Part shown: positions 1,141 through 18,725 of the stretch, piece after piece | Position numbering within the stretch: position 1 is the stretch's first letter | How the letters are laid out: the number at the start of each line of letters is the position of its first letter | Source: Candidatus Saccharimonadota bacterium | GTDB lineage: Bacteria; Patescibacteriota; Gracilibacteria; UBA1369; 2-02-FULL-48-14 | Assembly (NCBI GenBank): GCA_016699145.1 | Contig: CP064962.1 | Location: 600,001-632,000, forward strand | Length of the DNA: 32,000 nt | Direction: 5' to 3' | Program-made: the position numbers and the translations under genes | The notes under the pieces: model-generated | Told to the model about the DNA's origin: nothing | Databases searched by the model: none | What the model saw: only the letters and a program-made list of their open reading frames with translations

Positions 1141-2019
1141 CTAATAGGGAAGCATCACTCCCGAAGAAGATAGATTTTGATACGCTCGATCTGCACTAGG
1201 CCATGCCTTCATAGAAACTGCTTCTAAAAATTCTTTTTTTCTAGCGTCATAGTATCCTCTCTCTTGTCCAGACAAATCATCCAAAGGACGCAAAGAATTC
1301 ATAGGGACAAAGACAGGTTCGCCCGATTCAATGTCAATATTCTCCGTCACAGAATGAGATGCCGGCTCAAGAGTTTGCTCATGTCCAGACAAGTGCCTTT
1401 CCACTGTCCAACCCGCTCCACAGTGGACTCCCGCATAAGCAGGGTGGAAATAAAGACCTTGATGCAGCTCAGCTTCAACAGAACATGCAAGAATGACAGG
1501 TTTTAACTTGCCACCCTCAAAGGGATGAAATTGGAAATCCACAGATACATGCGGAATAGGATGCAATTCATGGCCTGTTTCAGATGACTCATGTCCAAGT
1601 TCCAATTCCAAAGCCGGCCCCACTCCAAAATCTATACTGCCCTTTCCCCCCACACGCCCACCTTCAAGTTCACCATCAACAGTCAGAGATGCTAGGTCAT
1701 GATTCCAATACCCGGCAGTGGACACCCCTAAAGACAATCCATTAGAAAACACGGCAGTACCTCCCAAATGTGGACCAAAAGAAAGAGGAGACCCTCCACG
1801 CACTCGAGCCGTACCTGGATCTAAAGTATAAGGCCCGCCCAAAACAGCCATCTCTCCCTCTAGAGCCACTTCCCGAGCCTGCTGCGCTGTATCATGAGTC
1901 ACGCCATCCACTGGAGTCACCTCCCCTGCCTCAACAGGTCCAGCAGCAAGAGCCCCTAAAAGTAGAGCAGGAGCCAAACGGGGACTGAAAGACGTTGAGG
2001 TGGGCTTTGAGATGGACAT
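1141..2019 (-). CDS. Secreted Gly/His-rich hypothetical protein
   Basis: 292-aa ORF with an N-terminal signal-like segment (RLAPALLLGALAAGPVEA). I recognise no family. Confidence 0.55.
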   Translation of the reverse strand: MSISKPTSTSFSPRLAPALLLGALAAGPVEAGEVTPVDGVTHDTAQQAREVALEGEMAVLGGPYTLDPGTARVRGGSPLSFGPHLGGTAVFSNGLSLGVSTAGYWNHDLASLTVDGELEGGRVGGKGSIDFGVGPALELELGHESSETGHELHPIPHVSVDFQFHPFEGGKLKPVILACSVEAELHQGLYFHPAYAGVHCGAGWTVERHLSGHEQTLEPASHSVTENIDIESGEPVFVPMNSLRPLDDLSGQERGYYDARKKEFLEAVSMKAWPSADRAYQNLSSSGVMLPY

Positions 2020-2044
2020 TTCTTCAAAAATTTAAGAAGGCAAA

Positions 2045-2073
2045 ATTTTAACTTCTGTCAAATTGGCAGTCAA
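2045..2073 (-). promoter_or_regulatory. Sigma70-like promoter for the 1141-2019 gene
   Basis: The minus strand reads TTGACT (2073-2068), a 17-nt spacer, then TAAAAT (2050-2045). The -10 box ends 25 nt upstream of the ATG at 2019. Confidence 0.4.
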
Positions 2074-8085: not shown

Positions 8086-8898
8086 TTAAAGTGGACTTCG
8101 AATCCTGTTTAAACTGGTCTGACTCACCTGGGTGTACCGTTGCGTAGTGCGAATGTTGCTGTGCCCAAGCAAAGTTTGTACATAACGCACATCCACCCCA
8201 TTCTCCAGACAGTGTGTGGCAAAACTGTGCCGCAGTGAATGAAAACTTGCCATCTTTTGAATTCCCGTTCTCCGCAACGCCTGTTTAAACACTTTTTGTG
8301 CCGTACGCACCGTGAGTTTTCCGCCTCTTTCACTTTCAAAAAGAATTCCAAACCCAGCCATCCCATTCACCGAAACTCTTAACTCACTCAACAACTTTTC
8401 CGGTAAAAGTGTGATCCGATCTTTTCCACCTTTCCCCTCCCGAACCATAATCAAGTTTCGACTCAAATCAATATCCTCAGCTCTCAAATTCACCACCTCA
8501 CTCACTCGCAAACCTGCTCCATATGCCAATGCCAATAAGAGTCGATGCTTTTTATTCAAGATTCCATCCAAAATCCTCTGAATCTCCTCACGTGAAAGCA
8601 CCACCGGCAACCGGAAGTTTCTTCGTGCGAACCGTAGTTCAATCTTTCCATGGTAACCCACCACCACCTTATAGAAAAACTTCACTGCATTCAAATAAAG
8701 ATTCACTGTTTCAGGTGCCGCCCCATTGTCCAATTTCCCAAGAAGAAAATCCTTCAAATGCTCCTCTTCAAAATCAAGGTTCCCCTTCCCTCTAAGATAT
8801 AGCTCCACACAGCGCACATAATTCTGGTTCGTTTTAGGGCTATAATGCCTGAGCCGTAACTCACGCCTCATTTTTTCCAGGCCAGTTTGCATGTCCAC
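8086..8898 (-). CDS. intI: Integron-integrase-like tyrosine recombinase (short, XerC/D-sized)
   Basis: 270 aa. The N-terminal SAM-like domain reads LRLRHYSPKTNQNYVRCVELYL. Catalytic elements seen: GLRVSEV, GKGGKDR, HSLRHSFATH, LLGHSNIRTTQRYTQV. IntI-like features include LPVVLSREEIQRIL and a C-terminal IRSPL. It is divergent from the cassette array. Confidence 0.85.
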   Translation of the reverse strand: MDMQTGLEKMRRELRLRHYSPKTNQNYVRCVELYLRGKGNLDFEEEHLKDFLLGKLDNGAAPETVNLYLNAVKFFYKVVVGYHGKIELRFARRNFRLPVVLSREEIQRILDGILNKKHRLLLALAYGAGLRVSEVVNLRAEDIDLSRNLIMVREGKGGKDRITLLPEKLLSELRVSVNGMAGFGILFESERGGKLTVRTAQKVFKQALRRTGIQKMASFHSLRHSFATHCLENGVDVRYVQTLLGHSNIRTTQRYTQVSQTSLNRIRSPL

Positions 8899-9039
8899 AT
8901 TAAGAGGTTTTTAAATTAAGTCTCTTAATAGTAACAAGTTTTTTCTGACAAATCCCTGAATTCTTTTCGGAGTTTTGCACAATGCCTTCAGCACAACTCG
9001 TTTCTATTCCAGCTTCCACAAAATTCGCATATACTCCAA

Positions 9040-9085
9040 TTACTGACTTCTATACGAAAATACTTCGTTTAGAAACGAGTTGTAC
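9040..9085 (+). other. Putative attI region with GTTGTAC core (9079-9085)
   Basis: GTTGTAC is preceded by the small palindrome CGTTT-AG-AAACG. The direct repeat TACGAAAA(T)A occurs at ~9053 and ~9083. The same GTTGTACGAAA(A)ATAAA string recurs at the start of another cassette (17164). Confidence 0.5.
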
Positions 9086-9129
9086 GAAAAATAAAAATTT
9101 GATATAATGAAGTGATTTATTATATCAAA
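9080..9129 (+). promoter_or_regulatory. Near-consensus promoter plus an 11-bp perfect inverted repeat upstream of cassette 1
   Basis: TTGTAC (9080-9085), a 17-nt spacer, then the extended -10 TGATATAAT (9100-9108). The inverted repeat TTTGATATAAT (9098-9108) / ATTATATCAAA (9119-9129) spans the -10 box. The ATG is at 9139. Confidence 0.5.
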
Positions 9130-9138
9130 TAAATAATT

Positions 9139-9387
9139 ATGGAAAATCCATCTTTGCCTAATCTTCAAGAATTAGTCCCTACTCTCAAACCAGCAAAGGG
9201 ATATGAATCTTTGTATGCAAAACAAAATCCACGCCTTACCGTCTTAGGGTGTTTTGAATGGGACGATGCATCTGTCAAACTAGCTGTGAGTAAATTAAAG
9301 GACTGGGGATATACCGCCATAACTGAACCTGTCGGAGGCATTGGAAAGGAGCAACAAGATGCAAAAGCTTTCTTTATTTTAGTATAA
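9139..9387 (+). CDS. Cassette 1: hypothetical 82-aa protein
   Basis: ORF followed 14 nt later by attC1. AT-rich. I recognise no family. Confidence 0.6.
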   Translation: MENPSLPNLQELVPTLKPAKGYESLYAKQNPRLTVLGCFEWDDASVKLAVSKLKDWGYTAITEPVGGIGKEQQDAKAFFILV

Positions 9388-9400
9388 ATTTTTCTTCATC

Positions 9401-9525
9401 GTACAACACTGCGTATGCGGCTACAGCTTGCTCCGTTCCGCCGCAAGCTTCCGCCCATATTGAGCGGATGTAGCCTGTCGGCTATTATACACCCGCGCAA
9501 CATCGCATACGCAGGAACGTTATAT
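9401..9525 (+). repeat. attC-like site 1 (125 bp)
   Basis: GTACAAC-ACTGCGTATGCG ... CGCATACGCAG-GAAC-GTTATAT. L''/L' are complementary at 11/12 positions. Nested inner stems are GGCTACA/TGTAGCC and AGCTTGC/GCAAGCT. Confidence 0.8.
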
Positions 9526-9601
9526 GAAATTTTAAAGTTTTTTAAAGAATACAATCATTATGAGTATTTACAAATCTAAACCAGCTATAGTAGGAGATAA
9601 T

Positions 9602-10145
9602 ATGAACCTCCCCGAGCTTACGCTCGGGGTTTCAGCCTAGTTCAAGCTGCGCTTGGCCCGCATCTTCTTCGCCCTGTTGTTGGATATACTTTCGAATGAC
9701 CTCCTCGTTAATCCCAACTGTGGAGGCAAAGTAACCTGCCGACCAAATACTTCTCGTCCCCAGTACACTTTTCTAAGAAACGGAAACTTTATGTTCAACT
9801 CACGAGCTGTGTTGGCTTTTATTATTCTCACCACCTCTCCCACTGCTATTTGTGGAGGTATGGAAATTAAAATATGTACATGGTCTAAATCCGTGTTTAC
9901 CTCTTTCACCACCAGTTCCGGATAGTACTTCGGAATATCCTTCATCACTTCCTGCAGAAAAGCCAACACACCTTCGTTGAATATCTTCCGACGGTATTTG
10001 GTCGGCCAAACTAAGTGATAGTCACAGATGAAAACTGCGTGTGAGCTTTTTCGTAGCTTCTTCATGCCTCCACTTTACACCACCACGAAGATGCGGGCAC
10101 CCACTACATCCCTCGGGCTTACGCCCGGGGAACTACGTCAGTTGA
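9602..10145 (-). mobile_element. IS200/IS605-family element (tnpA only)
   Basis: Subterminal hairpins CCCCGAGC-TTAC-GCTCGGGG (about 9610-9629) and CCCTCGGGC-TTAC-GCCCGGGG (about 10111-10131) flank tnpA. The left-end junction follows TCTAA on the minus strand. The right-end limit is approximate. Confidence 0.7.
9632..10065 (-). pseudogene. tnpA: IS200/IS605 Y1 (HUH) transposase TnpA, frameshifted
   Basis: The N-terminal frame carries YHLVWPTKYRRK and the HUH motif DHVHILIS. The canonical C-terminus IWSAGYFASTVGINEEVIRKYIQQQGEEDAGQAQLELG* is in another frame, with its stop at 9632-9634. The shift lies near the C4/G4 run at 9758-9761. Confidence 0.8.
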
Positions 10146-10421: not shown

Positions 10422-10563
10422 ACATAACAGTGTTTAGGCGGTTTGCAGTTTTTACCTATTTGAGGTTAAATTAAGGTACGTAAAAACCGCTCTCCCAAAT
10501 TTTGCACTGGTAGCCTTCGGCATTATACCAGCACAAAACTTCGCCCAAACACGAACGTTAGGT
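10422..10563 (+). repeat. attC-like site 2 (142 bp)
   Basis: ACATAAC-AGTGTTTAGGCG ... CGCCCAAACACG-AAC-GTTAGGT. L''/L' are complementary at 10/12 positions. Confidence 0.8.
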
Positions 10564-10964
10564 GTAATGCTTTGAGAATTAATTCAAATGACTATGGAAA
10601 CAATAACTGAAAAATTGAAGAAAAAAATTTTGGAAAAAGGTGATGAAGAAATATCACTCGAAGTGAATCTCGATACCCCTTCCCTACTCGTTCTTAACGA
10701 GGCTCCATACTATTCCTTAAAGTTAGGTGATTCTTACATTCATCTAGAGTGTTTCTGGCGTGCAGTTGTAAATTCAAAAATTGTTTTTACTTCAGAAGAT
10801 GATAAACAGATGTTCGGATTGGACAAACCGTTTGATCTTATCGAAGCATTCCAAAAATTTTTTTCTTCAAAACGTGTGTCGTTGATCAAAATAAAGCATC
10901 CCATCGCTGATCTTCAAATTATCTTCGAGGACGGAAGTTATATCGAAGCTTTTGCTAGGAGCTG

Positions 10965-11411
10965 TTAACATAAGACTTTGAGTAAAAGTGCCACAAGGCA
11001 GAGGGAGATAAAGGAGGCATACATCAGGTCTAATTTGTCATAGCGAGTTGAAATTCTTCTGTGATTTTTCATTCGGTGAAATAGGCGTTCAATCTCGTTG
11101 CGGTAGGCATAAATGTTCTTGTTGTATTCCCACGGAAATTTCATTTTTGCCTTTGGAGGAACGACTGGAGTTATGCCTTTTTCTTTGCACAGCTCCAGAA
11201 CTTTGTAGCATGAATAACCTTTGTCCATAGCCAAATGATCTACTGTTTTTGGAAACGAATAATCTCTCAAAATTTGTTTTCCAACTTTCACATCGCTCAC
11301 TTCACCACCTGTTAAAACAAAGTGCATCCCATGATCTGGATCTCCAGCAATCATGTGAATTTTTGTAGTGTACCCACCTCTACTTCGGCCTAACGCTTGT
11401 GGCCCCTTTTT
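10965..11411 (-). CDS. IS5-family transposase, DDE frame (orfB), reached by a +1-type shift at A6G4
   Basis: The frame is open from 11411 (KKGPQALGRSRGGYTTKIHMIAGD...MDKGYS...YRNEIERLFHRMKNHRRISTRYDK). The A6G4 run (complement of 11403-11412) lies in the overlap. Removing one A would fuse both frames. Confidence 0.75.
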   Translation of the reverse strand, partial: KKGPQALGRSRGGYTTKIHMIAGDPDHGMHFVLTGGEVSDVKVGKQILRDYSFPKTVDHLAMDKGYSCYKVLELCKEKGITPVVPPKAKMKFPWEYNKNIYAYRNEIERLFHRMKNHRRISTRYDKLDLMYASFISLCLVALLLKVLC

Positions 11412-11742
11412 TCATGGCTCCCGCTGCACTGTGGTGCGCTCTATTTGTTGTACTGTCCAGGAAAGCTATTCGCACTTGAAGTACATCTGCTACTTCAAGT
11501 GCTCTAAGCATTTGTCCAAAAAGTCCAGATTCGCTCCACCGTTTGTATCTTGTATAAATCGTGTGCCAGTCATTCTCTTTTTCTCTGTAATCGTAGGGCA
11601 TTTGTCTCCATGCGCACCCTGTTTTAAGTACATAACAAATGGCATCCATGCAACGTTTCAGTGGAATCTTTTCAGGCTTTCTGGGCTTTGGAAAATAAGG
11701 CTGGATCAGTTTGAACTGTTCATCCGTTAGCATCTGGTACAT
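11380..11742 (-). CDS. IS5-family transposase, N-terminal frame (orfA)
   Basis: LTDEQFKLIQPYFP...ICYVLKTGCAWRQMP...WHTIYTRYKRWSESG...FLDSTTNRAHHSAAGAMKKG matches the IS4/IS5 N-terminal (DUF4096-like) pattern. Confidence 0.8.
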   Translation of the reverse strand: MYQMLTDEQFKLIQPYFPKPRKPEKIPLKRCMDAICYVLKTGCAWRQMPYDYREKENDWHTIYTRYKRWSESGLFGQMLRALEVADVLQVRIAFLDSTTNRAHHSAAGAMKKGATSVRPK

Positions 11743-11899
11743 GGCGTTAGGGTTAGAGTAACTTCACTCTACACCACTCCTCTATTTATGTTAACAGCTC
11801 CTAGTTCAAGTGGATATGAAACTTGGTCAATATCAGGAGAAATTATTTGTCTAGGTGAAGGAAAGCTAGTAATTTCTTAAGACGCACTCAAAGCACAAC

Positions 11900-12076
11900 A
11901 CCTAACAGCGTGTATGCGGTTCAAAAATGTTCCGAATATTAATTTTAAAGGATTAAACATTTTTTCACCCAAATGGCGCAACTCAATGACGGCTCCCCTG
12001 GGTAGACACCTCTGTTTAGCTAAGGTAGTATGCACTGGGGACAGCGCGCCACTTCGCACACACGCGAACGTTAGTG
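11900..12076 (+). repeat. attC-like site 3 (177 bp)
   Basis: ACCTAAC-AGCGTGTATGCG ... CGCACACACGCG-AAC-GTTAGTG. L''/L' are complementary at 10/12 positions. Confidence 0.75.
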
Positions 12077-12658: not shown

Positions 12659-12790
12659 CACTAACACGGGTTTGGCAAAAGTGGCGGTTCAGTGCTCCGC
12701 AAACTCATTTGTGGTTAATCAAAGTTAGGTTCTCCACATCAACATTGGTGGTAAAAATCACCACCTTCGCCAAGCCCGGAACAGTTATGT
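12659..12790 (+). repeat. attC-like site 4 (132 bp)
   Basis: CACTAAC-ACGGGTTTGGCA ... CGCCAAGCCCGG-AACA-GTTATGT. The arms are complementary (GCCAAaCCCG versus GCCAAgCCCG). There is one extra A before the GTT. Confidence 0.7.
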
Positions 12791-12839
12791 GCAATTTTAT
12801 TCGAGTGCAGAATTATCATTAATAAAATCCAGTTGAACC

Positions 12840-13109
12840 ATGGATAAAAACGAAATTCAAAACGATTTCAAAAGCAATTTTCTCCAATTGCGAAAAATAA
12901 TTAATGCATGGAACTTAATTCCTGGATCAGGTAAAGAAGAATTCGATTCGCTCAATCAAAAAATATTGTCAAATTTGTACCGTGGAGCTGATGCTGACAA
13001 AATTAAAAGAGTAATCGAGAGCGAACTGTGCGTAAACTTTGGCTTTTTTATTGATGAATTTGATTCAGAAAAAATGTCGCTTGAAATTATTGAGTGGTGG
13101 AACGAATAA
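12840..13109 (+). CDS. Cassette 5: hypothetical 89-aa protein
   Basis: ORF followed 12 nt later by the 5' half of attC5. Confidence 0.6.
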   Translation: MDKNEIQNDFKSNFLQLRKIINAWNLIPGSGKEEFDSLNQKILSNLYRGADADKIKRVIESELCVNFGFFIDEFDSEKMSLEIIEWWNE

Positions 13110-13149
13110 TGAAAAACTGCACCTAACAGCGCGTTAGCGGCTCGTCCGA

Positions 13150-13178
13150 TTGACTTATTTTTTATTCTTCTTTAATCT
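13150..13178 (+). promoter_or_regulatory. Candidate hicBA promoter
   Basis: TTGACT (13150-13155), a 17-nt spacer, then TAATCT (13173-13178). The -10 box is weak. Confidence 0.3.
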
Positions 13179-13200
13179 GTAAATAGGATAAAAATTGATT

Positions 13201-13419
13201 ATGCGTAAAATAGACTTCAAATCAGTGATTTGGAAAGAAGGTGCGTATTATATCGCCCAATGTTTGGAGGTAGATGTGTCCAGTTTTGGCAAAACAAAAA
13301 AAGAAGCCCTTATTCATCTTCAAGACGCTTTGTCGTTGTATTACGAAGATGTGCCCTTGCCCAAAAAGGCAGAAGTGAATAACCCTATGATCGCATCTAT
13401 AGAACTTCAGTATGCCTAG
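13201..13419 (+). CDS. hicB: HicB-family antitoxin (short form, N-terminal domain only)
   Basis: 72 aa from ATG 13201. The segment VIWKEGAYYIAQCLEVDVSSFGKTKKEALIHLQDALSLYYED fits the HicB/UPF0150 fold pattern. It overlaps hicA by 8 nt. Confidence 0.7.
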   Translation: MRKIDFKSVIWKEGAYYIAQCLEVDVSSFGKTKKEALIHLQDALSLYYEDVPLPKKAEVNNPMIASIELQYA

Positions 13420-13591
13420 GCCCTATAAAGTAAGTCTGATTGTGAAGATTTTGAAAGATATGGGCTTTTTTTTTGTGTCTCAATCGGGTTCTCACGCAAA
13501 ATACCGTAAACCTGGAAATCCAACCCTAACAACCATAGTACCAATACATGAAAAAGAAGTCCGTTACGGCACCTTTCGGTCTATTTTATGA
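13412..13591 (+). CDS. hicA: HicA-family mRNA-interferase toxin (59 aa, not listed in the ORF track)
   Basis: My translation is MPRPYKVSLIVKILKDMGFFFVSQSGSHAKYRKPGNPTLTTIVPIHEKEVRYGTFRSIL*. It carries the HicA signature GSH..Y ... VP.H ... GT..SIL. Confidence 0.75.
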   Translation: MPRPYKVSLIVKILKDMGFFFVSQSGSHAKYRKPGNPTLTTIVPIHEKEVRYGTFRSIL

Positions 13592-13755
13592 CAGTCAAAT
13601 TTAAAAGAAAGTGACTTCAATAAACATAAAAAATAAGCCACTCGAAACTCGCTCAAATTGGCTAGGTGTCCACTTCGTGATATTTTACACCTGTGCAACT
13701 TCGCGCCAACGCGCGGACGTTAAGCGAAATATTTTTTGCCTCTAATATCAAAACT

Positions 13756-14229
13756 GTGAACGAAAATTCAACATCATTAACATTTTATCCAAGCAAGTGG
13801 AAAACTTTTCTTCTTTTTTTTGTATCACTTTTTTTCACTCTGGGAGGCACTTGGATGATAAGTGATAGAGAGCCTATGGGATGGTTCGTATCAATCTTTT
13901 TTGGCATCGGATGCATAGTATTCATCGCAATTTTGCTACCTCATTCTTCTTACTTACGCATTTCCGAAAAAGGATTTGAAATACGTTCATTATTTCGCGG
14001 CGGGTTTACCAATTGGAATGAAGTAGACCAATTTGAATCTGGATACATTGGACTAAATAAAATGGTGGTCTTCAACTATAGCCCAGGGCATAAAAAATAT
14101 GAAACAGGTAAAAAAATAGCAAAAACGATAACAGGTGTTGAAGGGGCATTGCCAGATACCTATGGAAAATCGGCAGAAGAATTAGCAAAATTGCTTAATG
14201 AATGGAAAGAAAAGTTTTCAAGAAAATAG
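13756..14229 (+). CDS. Cassette 6: two-TM membrane protein with a PH-like cytosolic domain (STM3941-like, tentative)
   Basis: The sequence reads ...LTFYPSKWKTFLLFFVSLFFTLGG...WFVSIFFGIGCIVFIAILLP...YLRISEKGFEIRSLF...WNEVDQFE. I chose GTG 13756 because it is the first start inside the cassette. The track start at 13693 lies within attC5. Confidence 0.6.
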   Translation: MNENSTSLTFYPSKWKTFLLFFVSLFFTLGGTWMISDREPMGWFVSIFFGIGCIVFIAILLPHSSYLRISEKGFEIRSLFRGGFTNWNEVDQFESGYIGLNKMVVFNYSPGHKKYETGKKIAKTITGVEGALPDTYGKSAEELAKLLNEWKEKFSRK

Positions 14230-14243
14230 GCAAAGAATACATC

Positions 14244-14364
14244 GTACAACAAGGACTATGCGGTTCATTTCTTCGCTTCGCTCAGTCATTCCCCACATTT
14301 GCCAGTAGTGCGCTTTCAGCGTATTTTACCACTGGCAAATGTCGCATAGTCATGGACGTTAGCT
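14244..14364 (+). repeat. attC-like site 6 (121 bp)
   Basis: GTACAAC-AAGGACTATGCG ... CGCATAGTCATG-GAC-GTTAGCT. The inner stem is CATTTGCCAGT / ACTGGCAAATG. Confidence 0.75.
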
Positions 14365-14447
14365 GAAATACATTTTTCTCTTTTGGCCTACGGCCAACTT
14401 TTTGAGAGGAAAGACATTTGATTTCCTCTATTGACAGGGGTGGTACT

Positions 14448-15382
14448 GTTTTGTAATCAATAGCTTTGCATCACTTCGTTAGGAGTTAGCATGTGAAGAC
14501 CCATGTGAGGACGTTCAAAATTGTAATAGTGAAGGAAGTCAGGGATTGCTTTTTTGTAAGCCTCTAAAGTCTTTGGGACTCGGGAGAGGCATTCCTCCTG
14601 GATGGTTCTGTTGAATCTCTCCACATAGGCATTGTCTGTGGGTGTTCGTACTCTTGAATGTCTGTGCTGAATTTCATTAGCTACAAGCGTTTTAGTGAGC
14701 CACTTGGAAAACTCACTTCCATGGTCTGTCTGGATCATTTTAAGTTCAAAGGGCATGTCTTCTTGTGAGTGCTGAATAAACTCCCAACTTGCGTGGGTTC
14801 CAATCTTCATCACCGGCATAGCAGAGGCCCATCTACTGCACACGTCCAGCATAGTGTATACATAAAGTCTGTCATAATAAGGCCCATCCACAATCGTGTC
14901 TATTTGCACCAATATGCCTGGTTTTTCAGGCCGCGGTCTTTCCTCATACTGGTGCCACTTCTTCCACTTGCTGTATTTGGTCATCTCGTTCCTTTTGAGT
15001 GTTCTCTTCACACTGGAAAGACTCACTTCGTAGCCATCTCTTTCCAGAAAATAGTGAATCACTTCTGCACACCGCTGGTACTTGAGTCTGTACTCTATGA
15101 CTTTCTGCACTGTCTCTGCAGAAAGCTCACTGGGGTGCGAATGGGGACGTGAGCTTTCTGTGGGAATGGTGTGGCCATAGTTATTGCCTCTGAGCTTTTC
15201 CACCCACCGCACAATGCTGCTTTGGTTAAAACCTGTGTGTCTGGCCACTTCGCGTGTGCTCCAGCCTTTTTCCAGAACTAACTTTGCTGCCTCCATTCGC
15301 ACCCGAGGCAGATGGGGATTTTGTGTGTATGCCATGTCCATATCTTTGCACAGGGGTGATGCAAAGCTATTGAACCATTACA
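14448..15382 (-). mobile_element. IS481-like insertion sequence A (935 bp) with a 6-bp target duplication
   Basis: The direct repeat GGTACT occurs at 14442-14447 and 15383-15388. The terminal inverted repeats share a 17-bp perfect core, CAATAGCTTTGCATCAC (14458-14474 / 15356-15372). Confidence 0.85.
14457..15341 (-). CDS. IS481/IS3-type DDE (rve) transposase, intact
   Basis: 294 aa. It has an HTH segment (WSTREVARHTGFNQSSIVRWV) and a DDE triad context (LVQIDT, QTDHGSEF, YVERFNRT). Confidence 0.88.
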   Translation of the reverse strand: MDMAYTQNPHLPRVRMEAAKLVLEKGWSTREVARHTGFNQSSIVRWVEKLRGNNYGHTIPTESSRPHSHPSELSAETVQKVIEYRLKYQRCAEVIHYFLERDGYEVSLSSVKRTLKRNEMTKYSKWKKWHQYEERPRPEKPGILVQIDTIVDGPYYDRLYVYTMLDVCSRWASAMPVMKIGTHASWEFIQHSQEDMPFELKMIQTDHGSEFSKWLTKTLVANEIQHRHSRVRTPTDNAYVERFNRTIQEECLSRVPKTLEAYKKAIPDFLHYYNFERPHMGLHMLTPNEVMQSY

Positions 15383-15777: not shown

Positions 15778-15838
15778 AGTTACCGACTCTTAAATATTGT
15801 AGCTTCGCAATTATTGATAAAGGTGAAAATTCTACATC

Positions 15839-15855
15839 GCCTAACACTGCGTATG
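15839..15855 (+). repeat. attC-like site 7, 5' half only
   Basis: GCCTAAC-ACTGCGTATG has the same L'' as attC1 and then diverges. No cognate CATACGCAG-GAAC-GTT occurs downstream. Confidence 0.5.
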
Positions 15856-16007
15856 AATGAATGTTTCCATATTAAAAAAGGTTATTGATAAATAACCCCT
15901 TCTGAGGCTTCCAACGCCATGTTACACCACGTACACGGTTTAACCTTTCGAGGTCCCACCAGCATAGCTAGTGGTTTATGAATTGCTAATTATACCGCCA
16001 AAAAAAA

Positions 16008-17160
16008 CCTCCGGTTCAGGCACGTACGTACGTAGTTTCACGAATTTCAAGTACAGCTCAGGGGAAAAGGAAGAGGGAGTAGAGTAGAGATACTTTACTT
16101 CTTCACCCCAACTCCCTCATGGAACAATATAACATGACGAAAGGCATTCGTGGACTGAGAAGATTACTTCGGCAGTTTAACGAAGCTACTTTAAAGCCCT
16201 GGCAGAGAGACGTACTTAGAGAAAGAATCCTTATTTTGGATTGGTACGACCATAATGGAAAGAATAAAGCCAAGACTGCCAGGGCTTTTGAAACTTCTAG
16301 AAGCCACGTACAAAAGCTGGTGAAGGCCAGAAAGGAAGAAGGACTGGGTGGTCTTATTCCGAAAATAACAGGACCCAATAACAAACGTGGATTTAATCTC
16401 ACCAGTGAAGAGAAACAAGAGATTGAACGCTATGCAAGGATGTTTCCAGATTGGAGCCACAAGAAGCTTCACATGTTTCTTCACCAGCACAGCATTTCCA
16501 CCTTGTACCGCTATTTGGCAGCAAAAGGATTACTGGTTCGTAATCGCTGCCCCGGGTTTCACAAGAAACCAAAACCTAGGTCTGCTTGGAAAGTCCAAAG
16601 AAAAACTCCCCAAGGACTACCAAATCTTAAAACCTGGAGACTTGGTAGTCCTAGATTCCATCGTTGAGTTTGTGGACAGCGCCTTCAACAAACTGTACTT
16701 CATTACCTGTGTGGATGTGGCCACCAGGATAGGTTTTGCACTCGTAACCAAGCACCACAGTTCCAAGGCGGCCAAAGCTTTGCTGGAAAAGATGGAAGAA
16801 GTGCTCCAGACCAAGATTAAAGCTGTTTTAACAGACAACGGCAGTGAGTTCCTGGCGTACTTCCATAAAGCCTGCCAGCAGCAAGGGATTGAGCACTTCT
16901 TCACTCGCCCCAGAACACCAAAAGATAATGCGATTTGTGAGCGATTCAACCTTACTTTGCAACAACACCTCTACTGGAGAGTGGACTTAACCAGTCCCAT
17001 TTACAAGATTAATGAGGTGCTCGCGGATTGGCTCGTGGAGTATAATTGCCTTCGTCCACATGAATCTCTCAATATGAGACCTCCAGTTGCTCACTACTTT
17101 CATCTATTCTACTCCCCTCGCCCCATCCCCGAGGTGTACTTGAAACTATGGAACCGGACA
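16008..17160 (+). mobile_element. IS481-like insertion sequence B (limits approximate)
   Basis: It has ~50-bp imperfect inverted repeats: left ...CCGGTTC..TAGTTTCA..TTTCAAGTACAGCTCAGGGG..GGGAGTAGAGTAGA, and right complement TGTCCGGTTCCATAGTTTCAAGTACACCTCGGGG..GGGAGTAGAATAGA. I found no clear target duplication. The right end is 3 nt from GTTGTAC (17164-17170). Confidence 0.6.
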
Positions 17161-17178
17161 GTACGTTGTACGAAATAA
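16119..17178 (+). pseudogene. IS481-type DDE transposase split into two frames at an A5 run
   Basis: Frame 1 (16119-16667) carries the HTH N-terminus. Frame 2 carries the DDE domain (VVLDSI, TDNGSEF, ICERFN) and ends at 17178. The frames overlap around the A5 run at 16601-16605. Removing one A gives ...VQRKLPKDYQILKPGD.... Confidence 0.75.
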
Positions 17179-17226
17179 ATAAGCCTGCTAAGCTCCTTCA
17201 CGAGCTTAAATTTTAATCATAAAACA

Positions 17227-17794: not shown

Positions 17795-18046
17795 TCCTAA
17801 CCAAGCATAGTTAAGACTAGAGATTTGTTGGAAAGAAAGGTTAAGGAAAGCTGGTCCCACAAAATTTACGCGCTGCGGTGCCGTAGCTCCTCGCGTGCTC
17901 GGGTTCTCCGCGGCATAAGATCGCGGATGACGCGCACACGCGTCACCGTGAGCCGCTACGACCACATTTTTTGACGCAAATCGGCTTTACAGATTGAATA
18001 AATGACACAGGCGTCAAAAAACGTCAGCGTAAAATCCACGTTAAGC
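17795..18046 (+). repeat. Atypical cassette junction: R''-like TCCTAAC, a GC-rich long hairpin, an 11-bp stem, and a terminal GTTAAGC
   Basis: TCCTAAC is at 17795-17801 and GTTAAGG at 17840-17846. ATTTACGCGCTG (~17865) pairs with CAGCGTAAAAT (~18025). An imperfect ~90-nt GC-rich hairpin spans 17874-17965. TTTTTTGACGC (17967-17977) pairs with GCGTCAAAAAA (18011-18021). The R' box GTTAAGC is at 18040-18046. Confidence 0.35.
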
Positions 18047-18076
18047 GAAATATTTTTTGCCTCTAATATCAAAACT

Positions 18077-18549
18077 GTGAACGAAAATTCAACATCATTA
18101 ACATTTTATCCAAGCAAGTGGAAAACTTTTCTTCTTTTTTTTGTATCACTTTTTTTCACTCTGGGAGGCACTTGGATGATAAGTGATAGAGAGCCTATGG
18201 GATGGTTCGTATCAATCTTTTTTGGCATCGGATGCATAGTATTCATCGCAATTTTGCTACCTCATTCTTCTTACTTACGCATTTCCGAAAAAGGATTTGA
18301 AATACGTTCATTATTTCGCGGCGGGTTTACCAATTGGAATGAAGTAGACCAATTTGAATCTGGATACATTGGACTAAATAAAATGGTGGTCTTCAACTAT
18401 AGCCCAGGGCATAAAAAATATGAAACAGGTAAAAAATAGCAAAAACGATAACAGGTGTTGAAGGGGCATTGCCAGATACCTATGGAAAATCGGCAGAAGA
18501 ATTAGCAAAATTGCTTAATGAATGGAAAGAAAAGTTTTCAAGAAAATAG
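18077..18549 (+). pseudogene. Cassette 9: duplicate of cassette 6 with a frameshift (A7 to A6)
   Basis: By eye the sequence is identical to 13719-14229 starting from GTTAAGC (18040), apart from one missing A at 18431-18436 (versus 14110-16). That change gives a premature TAG at 18437-18439. Confidence 0.8.
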
Positions 18550-18563
18550 GCAAAAAATACATC

Positions 18564-18695
18564 GTACAACAATGTACAACAATGACTATGCGGTTCATTT
18601 CTTCGCTTCGCTCAGTCATTCACCCACATTTGCCAGTGGTGCGCTTTCAGCGTATTTTGCCACTGGCAAACATCGCATAGTCACGAACGTTACAT
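18564..18695 (+). repeat. attC-like site 9 (paralog of attC6)
   Basis: GTACAAC-AATG[TACAACAATG]ACTATGCG ... CGCATAGTCACG-AAC-GTTACAT. It has a 10-bp tandem duplication of the R'' region and scattered substitutions relative to attC6. Confidence 0.75.
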
Positions 18696-18725
18696 GTAAT
18701 TTAATTTTTTTTAAGGCTTTGCTAG

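Follow-up and report, generated by a model that had tools for sequence, protein, structure and literature searches.

A hicBA toxin–antitoxin module within the loop of an attC-type site in a Patescibacteria cassette array

Does a toxin–antitoxin (TA) operon in a cassette array occupy a cassette of its own, or can it lie inside the recombination site of another cassette? The question is raised by a 32,000-nt stretch of contig CP064962.1 (positions 600,001–632,000, hereafter the window), in which a hicB–hicA pair stands between two segments that together make up one attC site, here called attC5. A preliminary description made from the letters of this DNA had placed the pair inside that site and had given it no attC of its own. 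We compared attC5 with its neighbours, with related metagenomic loci and with known systems (coordinates in Table 1). The reading that we favour, at a probability of roughly 65%, is that attC5 is a working attC that carries a hicBA addiction module in its loop (an 'inside-out' cassette), the anatomy being observed, and recombination at the site and toxicity of HicA predicted.

Both halves named in the preliminary description (13121–13139 and 13704–13725) are present. R'' fits RYYYAAC and R' fits GTTRRRY at the two ends of the site, and the spacing—one nucleotide after AAC on the 5' side, four before GTT on the 3' side—is that of four intact attC sites of the same array (marked in Table 1). A geometric scan (AAC, 1 nt and an 11-mer, paired with its complement, 4 nt and GTT) returned six intact sites and one further pair of boxes, 597 nt apart, at 13125–13721. 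Measured from R'' to R', attC5 is 605 bp long, outside the range of known attC sites (57–141 bp; PMC5371416), whereas its empty form is about 100 nt. With regard to extrahelical bases, the 11-bp L stem has no bulge, and the asymmetry lies in the spacer (1 versus 4 nt) and in a TT before L'.

The limits of the cassette were read from its junctions. The cassette at 13717–14377 is duplicated at 18038–18708; identity begins at 13719/18040 and ends at the next GTT, and because the homology starts there, the G|TT at 13719 is a true cassette junction. The duplicated cassette consists of a 124-aa open reading frame (ORF) and an attC; in the second copy a 1-nt deletion causes a frameshift, and the attC has diverged to 86–93%. 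R'' of attC5 with its flank, TGCACCTAAC (13118–13127), is complementary at 9 of 10 positions to the start of cassette 5, GTTATGTGCA (12784–12793), and the previous cassette has the same complementarity between its own R'' and its own start. The 89-aa ORF of cassette 5 is identical to NCBI IPG41_03360 from a Candidatus Peregrinibacteria metagenome-assembled genome (MAG), the source of the window; a 64% homolog has no integron around it and was set aside as uninformative on attC.

Table 1. Positions of attC5, the hicBA module and related features; positions refer to the window unless another locus is named.
Locus	Feature	Position	Strand	Remarks
Window	Tyrosine recombinase gene	8086–8898	−	270 aa; divergent from the cassettes; PF00589, E = 4e-40
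Window	Cassette array	9139 to ~19230	+	attC-like sites between cassettes; preceded by the tyrosine recombinase gene
Window	Intact attC site	9405–9521		Geometric scan; spacing as in attC5
Window	Intact attC site	10426–10559		Geometric scan; spacing as in attC5
Window	Intact attC site	11904–12072		Geometric scan; spacing as in attC5
Window	Intact attC site	12663–12786		Geometric scan
Window	Intact attC site	14248–14360		Geometric scan; spacing as in attC5
Window	Intact attC site	18578–18691		Geometric scan
Window	Cassette 5	12785–13719	+	From TT of the preceding R' to G of its own R'; cargo on either side of the R/L stem
Window	89-aa ORF	12840–13109	+	Canonical cargo position of cassette 5
Window	R'' box of attC5, ACCTAAC	13121–13127	+	Aligns with R'' of 19 empty sites
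Window	L'' box of attC5, GCGCGTTAGCG	13129–13139	+	Internal GTT at 13133–13135; same as in empty sites
Window	hicBA module	13145–13647	+	In the loop of attC inner hairpin 1; boundaries to within a few nt, from alignment with empty sites and the L009 attC
Window	Closing repeat, 5' arm	13146–13165	+	Holds the −35 box TTGACT
Window	−35 box TTGACT	13150–13155	+	Good match; within the 5' arm of the closing repeat
Window	−10-like box TAATCT	13173–13178	+	17 nt after TTGACT; 3 of 6 consensus positions
Window	hicB	13201–13419	+	72 aa; antitoxin-type, no DNA-binding domain; 8-nt overlap with hicA
Window	hicA	13412–13591	+	59 aa; PF07927, 53.4 bits, E = 3e-14
Window	Closing repeat, 3' arm	13626–13645	+	17 of 20 complementary to the 5' arm by direct reading
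Window	Retained attC inner part	13648–13698	+	CTCGCTCAAATT motif and hairpin 2 (AGGTGT...ACACCT)
Window	L' box of attC5, CGCCAACGCGC	13704–13714	+	10 of 11 complementary to L''
Window	Spacer GGAC	13715–13718	+	Between L' and R'
Window	R' box of attC5, GTTAAGC	13719–13725	+	Crossover between G13719 and T13720
L009	Second, different hicBA	~1190–1790		UPF0150-type HicB; flanks GGCTCG...CTCGCTCAAAT match those of the window
L018	138-aa ORF in attC loop	2296–2965		Own extended −10 box; perfect 24-bp closing repeat
L020	142-aa ORF in attC loop	1505–2174		53% identical to the L018 ORF; L boxes and closing repeat differ
L065	75-aa ORF in attC loop	439–813		Same layout as the L092 sites
L081	Cargo between L'' and L' of one attC	1527–2056		Closed by its own inverted repeat
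L092	73-aa ORF in hairpin 1	8425–8768		Consecutive with the 8813–9521 site
L092	186-aa ORF in hairpin 1	8813–9521		About 40 nt from the preceding R' to its R''
L109	74-aa ORF in attC loop	7634–7982	−	Same layout as the L092 sites

The same attC is found without the genes. A pattern search of metagenomes for the two L boxes of attC5, 40–70 nt apart, returned 20 loci, 19 of which are ordinary attCs: their L'' and L' boxes are the same as in attC5, and AAC is separated from GTT by about 100 nt. Their layout is RYYYAAC-A-GCGCGTTAGCGG-TTCG-CTGCGG-CTCACCCAAG-hairpin 2-CTTCGCCAACGCGCG-GAC-GTTRRRY, and their flanks all differ from one another. Window positions 13118–13144 and 13649–13731 are collinear end to end with these empty sites and with an intact attC of L009, and the alignment gap that represents the hicBA insert falls at the small loop GCTGCGGC of inner hairpin 1. 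In the empty sites (L090–L107) the hairpin-2 stem is TTGACTGG...CCAGTCAA and begins with TTGACT; this near-consensus −35 hexamer of an ordinary hairpin-2 stem is also the −35 box of the hicBA promoter.

Within the interval itself, the search for a second site was made with a covariance model (R1) built from 13 external attCs only. The model scored the intact attCs of the window at 68.6, 55.0, 49.1 and 35.1 bits and found no independent full attC within 13140–13700, where its one result was a local match to the inner part alone (the variable terminal structure (VTS); 13636–13702, 20.8 bits, E about 9e-4). It detected no independent L'/R' before hicB and no R''/L'' between 13592 and 13700, that is, neither part of the arrangement that would make hicBA an ordinary cassette. 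The earlier statement that nothing of the kind follows hicA stands; the companion statement, that there is no GTT core between 13140 and hicB, is to be read with the qualification that a GTT is present inside L'' (13133–13135). Together with the 19 empty sites and compensatory changes between L'' and L' (below), this places hicBA inside the attC, as had been proposed.

That internal GTT recurs in a separate observation. In the two loci with the closest HicB relatives (97%), L003 (1760–1800) and L004 (1390–1430), homology to the window begins at the GTT inside L'', which is joined there to the 3' end (...TAAC|GTT) of another attC, as if it were a secondary crossover site that had removed the 5' half. 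The upstream attC of L003 was undetected by model R1 at E ≤ 0.01 and was read by eye from family motifs.

Beyond the window, groundwater contigs L005–L007 match positions 13125–13729 at 88.6% (blastn) and differ from the window in the ORF upstream, in the RYYY segment of R'' and in the cassette downstream. When one genome was scanned for each species, 80 loci with HicB relatives came up, all from MAGs of uncultured bacteria and most labelled Patescibacteria or candidate phyla. Many share the frame RYYYAAC-N-L''-GG-hairpin 1-CCCAAA-TTTGACTTATTTTTT ... hicB hicA ... AAAAAATAAGTCAAA-CTTC-L'-xAAC-GTTRRRY, in which the L boxes vary by locus and are still complementary (GCGTATAGCAG in L026 and L028, CGGCACATCTG in L020, CGGAATATCGG in L022 and CCGAATATGAG in L060). 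As an unconstrained 11-mer complementarity search between flanks was dominated by AT-rich chance matches, a fixed-geometry test was used instead: complementarity of at least 9/11 was found in 9 of 25 cognate locus pairs versus 13 of 600 non-cognate ones. Over ten aligned loci, 91.8% of the cells of the L helix are paired and 8 of the 11 pairs have changed on both sides; sliding the partner by 1–3 columns as a control leaves 30–44% paired. By this comparison, pairing of L'' with L' across the genes is under selection.

The position of the module within the attC differs between loci: it sits in hairpin 2 in most, and in hairpin 1, followed by a normal hairpin 2, in the window, L005 and L003. In L060, hicBA is the sole cargo of its cassette; R'' of the TA-bearing attC follows the end of the attC before it by 116 nt and is complementary to the cassette start. 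An array context is seen in other loci as well, where attCs of canonical form run in the same direction and integrase homologs are close by. Judged from these loci, hicBA-in-attC is a conserved unit and no one-off insertion.

Two further loci show other configurations. L060 and L081, two contigs of one MAG, bear hicBA copies with almost the same 3' half (L' TCATATTCGG), but the 5' half of L081 (L'' CCCGCTATGCG) differs and is not complementary to it, so that L081 is a hybrid site. In L021 (2870–3560) the hicBA unit has a mutated R' (ATT) and is flanked on both sides by a direct repeat of ~45 bp that includes the apparent 3' end of a tRNA gene, which suggests a different integration mode.

The module is closed by an inverted repeat of its own, the arms of which a repeat search extends to 29 nt at 79%. 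Across loci the repeat measures 15–21 bp, with 21 perfect pairs in L003, and is 91% paired with three compensatory pairs, the changes being in L020 and L060. Conservation of the 3' arm points to pairing, because this arm has no promoter role. The empty site has the outermost 6 bp of the repeat (TTGACT/AGTCAA) as the base of its hairpin-2 stem, which suggests that the hicBA module arose in hairpin 2.

When the bottom strand of 13115–13730 was folded as DNA, the minimum free energy (MFE) was −78.4 kcal/mol (z = −4.3), and the MFE structure contained the R stem, a 3-nt bulge, the L stem, hairpin 2 and the closing stem; the top strand gave −74.6 kcal/mol with the outer stems absent. In the full site, L-box pairs had a mean probability of 0.32 on the bottom strand and of 0.03 on the top one; the corresponding values of an empty composite were 0.60 and 0.06, and shuffling of the whole insert in the full site gave 0.19 (mean of 10). 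Equilibrium folding omits kinetics and the requirement for ~600 nt of single strand. Counts of G–T versus A–C across loci showed no strand bias in the L helix.

The preliminary description had also reported a promoter, hicB and a 59-aa hicA in the interval. All three are present, with qualifications: the −10 box is only a 3/6 match, a consensus promoter scan left TTGACT-17-TAATCT under threshold and unlisted, and the 59-aa length of HicA is the result of truncation. At codon 60 of hicA (13589–13591) a CGA-to-TGA nonsense change removes the last 15 residues, relatives being 70–74 aa long; TGA terminates 7 of the 18 long ORFs of the window and is therefore a stop codon here. At the same −10 position relatives have the better boxes TAAAAT or TATTAT. 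HicA shows weak matches to the PDB HicA chains 1WHZ, 6G26 and 4C26, and look-ups of its exact sequence and of that of the 89-aa protein gave no record. HicB has more than 300 homologs (72–97% identity), several of which bear the NCBI name 'HicB family antitoxin'; it has a weak DUF7387 match under the Pfam cut-off, no meaningful match in a PDB sequence search and a low-confidence AlphaFold model (predicted local distance difference test (pLDDT) score 57). The promoter is presumably active, and HicA, although truncated in the window, is presumably still toxic.

A further helix was seen within the operon. The first 21 nt of hicB, including the start codon, pair with the 3' end of hicA (in the window, the ~19 nt at 13203–13221 with 13575–13592), and the same positions pair in 22 other loci; over these 23 loci the helix is 91.3% paired across 19 pairs, with four compensatory pairs, some at synonymous sites. 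The window retains a perfect 10-nt core, and the base change that turns CGA into TGA in hicA also disrupts one pair. This helix could act in the mRNA, in the DNA hairpin or in both.

Genes in attC loops are not limited to this hicBA family (Table 1). Many matches of the long-range scan paired L'' of one attC with the L' of a copy further along, or reflected R' and R'' being complementary over a whole cassette; such matches were set aside unless an inner closing repeat was present and there was no nearer partner. The cargoes retained are each closed by an inverted repeat of their own; they include a conserved 138/142-aa protein and a second type of hicBA, as well as small membrane-like ORFs and one insert that is non-coding. 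Neither copy of the 138/142-aa protein matched an NCBIfam family, and the 138-aa copy, which alone was scanned against Pfam, had no match there. The full array of L092 has an integrase homolog followed by at least nine attCs, two of them inside-out. On this sequence evidence, loop-side cargo is a wider habit of the arrays of Patescibacteria and the candidate phyla radiation (CPR), extending beyond hicBA.

The recombinase beside the array is closest to integron integrases: their model TIGR02249 is its best NCBIfam match, at 208.5 bits, which is below the cut-off of 265. Aligned with VchIntIA (2A3V), residues 10–175 correspond to 9–179 and residues 199–270 to 246–317, and ~43 aa are missing: the protein has 23 residues (176–198) where VchIntIA has 66 (180–245), and the IntI-specific I2 insertion (I2 helix, intI_Cterm, near patch III) is thus absent. 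IntI is defined in IntegronFinder by this IntI-specific region (PMC4889954), and according to PMC7790495 known IntI proteins require the I2 helix for hairpin recombination. Homologs of the same length and 47–56% identity stand beside arrays in L092, L058, L039, L103, L106, L098 and L107, and L020 has a more distant one (38%). This I2-less integrase presumably recombines attC5.

The array has also received mobile elements. The attC after a 116-aa cassette (15835–17190) ends within L'' (CATCGCCTAAC-A-CTGCGTATG|AATG...); an element with an rve-type transposase (16119–17178) follows the broken L'', and there is no 3' half beyond, so that an insertion sequence (IS) appears to have inserted into this attC, with loss of the rest of the site. 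Three more insertions lie at 9560–10130, 10957–11805 and 14457–15341; the types among them are an IS200-type Y1 transposase between GC hairpins, an rve-type transposase and a two-ORF element, the last bounded by GGAGCTGTTAAC/GTTAACAGCTCC and interrupting the ORF that starts at 10588.

How might such a site work? attC5 would belong to an attC type widespread in Patescibacteria/CPR, with a self-contained hicBA module of ~500 bp in the loop of its first inner hairpin. In a single strand or an excised circle, the AAC/GTT R stem would form and be followed by an unpaired spacer (1 by 4 nt), then by the 11-bp L stem and inner hairpin 2, with the hicBA genes looped out beyond the 17–21-bp inverted repeat that closes them. 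The 89-aa ORF of cassette 5 would then keep the customary cargo position and hicBA would be cargo of the loop (VTS) side, where the module would be transcribed from its own promoter, the −35 box of which would lie in the closing stem. Normal G|TT crossovers could not separate the addiction module from the recombination site: excision using or spanning attC5 would lead to loss of the antitoxin gene, and the integrated site, which would have to fold across ~600 nt, would recombine less and so anchor the flanking cassettes. The preliminary description had likewise raised the possibility that the insert blocks or couples excision of neighbouring cassettes. The circular junction of excised cassette 5 would read ...CGCGCGGAC-G|TTATGTGCA..., and the geometry implies that in the excised circle the site would be a compact hairpin with a short leader as its loop, the halves flanking a gene only in the integrated array.

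Several findings weigh against a working attC5. Recombination of a 605-bp site, which we infer, has no experimental precedent at such a length. In the equilibrium estimate the insert lowers predicted L-box pairing about twofold relative to the empty site, and scrambling the 3' arm of the closing repeat has a small, noisy effect (0.32 to 0.27, mean of 10), too small to establish a structural role of the repeat on thermodynamic grounds. The integrase lacks a helix that known IntI proteins need. The weak −10 box and the truncated HicA are also unfavourable, and the window copy of hicBA may be decaying. Finally, the ten loci used for covariation were selected for recognisable halves, and in about half of the 25 loci with a closing repeat the outer halves are degenerate or absent.

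Some of these points would be expected if hicBA and its inverted repeat had landed once in an attC loop and killed the site, leaving the halves as a decaying scar and cassette 5 as a fused, immobile block of three genes. Such a history would fit a site about 6 times longer than any characterised attC, halved L-box pairing, the nonsense mutation in hicA, the loss of the 5' half in L003/L004 by crossover at the GTT inside L'', and the reduction of the outer halves to remnants, such as CCCAAAT before the −35 box, in roughly half of the hicBA loci. Complementarity should decay in a dead site, however, and the L boxes differ by lineage yet pair, with 8 of 11 pairs compensatory; the closing repeat, too, is kept with compensatory changes. 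The units of the window and L005 lie between different cassettes, and the L060 unit is a cassette in its own right, with R'' complementary to its start. Because covariation is maintained, we regard a scar as unlikely. Slightly less credible again is that the module bounded by TTGACTTATTTTTT...AAAAAATAAGTCAA is a small mobile element of the non-autonomous kind, with terminal inverted repeats and no transposase, and that it targets attC hairpins in the manner of IS1111-attC elements and group IIC-attC introns. Presence/absence polymorphism relative to the 19 empty sites is in its favour, as are the occurrence of one hicBA clade at two positions (the hairpin 2 loop in most loci, hairpin 1 in the window, L005 and L003), the joining in L081 of the 3' half of L060 to a different 5' half, and TTCGA on both sides of the repeat in L005. 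We disfavour this explanation because there is no transposase and no consistent target-site duplication, and because the ends of the repeat are of attC origin: its first 6 bp are the base of the normal hairpin-2 stem, so that the 'terminal repeat' looks like an attC stem. Other cargo genes occupy the same two positions with unrelated closing repeats, and hicBA copies that have no outer halves keep the attC-derived AAAT/CCCAAAT junction.

The pairing could also belong to RNA, with read-through transcripts joining 5' and 3' regions to control translation or stability of hicBA and the attC-like halves being incidental. The helix between the hicB start and the hicA 3' end, covarying in 23 loci and with both arms inside the predicted mRNA, speaks for such control. 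The L boxes and the −35-containing repeat, in contrast, lie upstream of any transcript begun at the hicBA promoter, the halves can be aligned base by base with ordinary attCs devoid of genes, and cassette junctions fall exactly at G|TT; an RNA role of the innermost helix is compatible with the DNA explanation and does not replace it, and as an account of the locus RNA control is very improbable. Least credible of all is an ordinary hicBA cassette with its own attC, the match at 13121–13139 being due to chance or a remnant of the upstream cassette's site. It can draw on the GTT at 13133, exactly where the L003/L004 junction lies, and on a short GC hairpin TTCGCGCCAACGCGCGGA before R'. Set against it are the lack of an R''/L'' partner for L' between 13592 and 13700, the identity of the 5' half with that of 19 complete attCs, in which the 3' half likewise matches that of the window, and an R'' complementary to the start of cassette 5; because the model search finds no complete attC inside, we give this explanation next to no weight. 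A working attC5 thus remains our preferred reading. An extension of it is tentative, and we would bet against it: that Patescibacteria/CPR (including Peregrinibacteria) have a separate integron lineage with a Xer-like, I2-less integrase, in which attC loops are regular cargo sites and hicBA serves as sensor and lock, folding or loss of the site stopping the supply of antitoxin and punishing excision.

attC5 shares much with long branched attC sites such as the Vibrio cholerae repeats (VCR): AAC/GTT R boxes, complementary L'' and L' around an unpaired spacer, a branched and variable inner structure, a G|TT crossover, tandem arrangement between cassettes beside a divergent tyrosine recombinase, and sequence variation between sites with pairing kept. 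It differs in its length of 605 bp and in an inner loop with two genes and a promoter, in the asymmetric spacer (1 versus 4 nt), in an L stem without evident extrahelical bases and in the I2-less integrase. TA cassettes with their own promoters are known to stabilise chromosomal integrons (PMC8876359, PMC5371416). Those of sedentary chromosomal integrons (phd-doc, ccdAB, parDE, relBE and higBA; Vibrio) resemble hicBA in being type II TA pairs with their own promoter and an expected stabilising effect on the array; they lie between two attCs, however, whereas hicBA lies between L'' and L' of one, is inseparable from it and shares a cassette with an unrelated ORF.

Extra DNA inside an attC with known empty sites is likewise a feature of IS1111-attC elements and group IIC-attC introns, but the hicBA insert has no transposase, intron RNA or reverse transcriptase; hicB, hicA and their flanks account for it fully, no Rfam family matched in the window, and the closing repeat is a continuation of the stem of the attC itself. 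Short ORFs, and in one case a transcription start, have been described within attCs (PMC8876359, PMC11014356). Both ORF-11-type coupling and the transcription start in the attC of a gene-less Vibrio cassette share a coding or promoter function inside an attC with attC5, but amount to a few codons or one start in an attC of normal length, whereas attC5 has a complete operon in its loop. With type II HicAB systems the module shares a PF07927 HicA, a short, overlapping upstream gene of the HicB kind and the hicB–hicA order; it differs in a 72-aa HicB without a DNA-binding domain, a HicA minus its last 15 residues and operon ends that are mutually complementary. In the open-access literature we found no description of a TA module in an attC loop, which agrees with, and does not prove, the earlier suggestion that the arrangement is a different one; nor did we find one of integrons in Patescibacteria/CPR.

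In the accepted picture of cassettes, sites are compact and cargo lies outside the hairpin. The definition of an attC would widen if a site of the ordinary kind can carry a whole operon in its loop with its pairing still kept by selection: attCs may be several times longer than 57–141 bp and carry genes. Detection that expects a compact attC and an IntI-specific region, the criterion of IntegronFinder, would probably miss or fragment such integrons. An addiction module fused to a recombination site would be a possible way for arrays to lock neighbouring cassettes in place, and the I2-less partner integrase would be a natural test case for the idea that gaining the I2 helix was decisive in the move to hairpin recombination.

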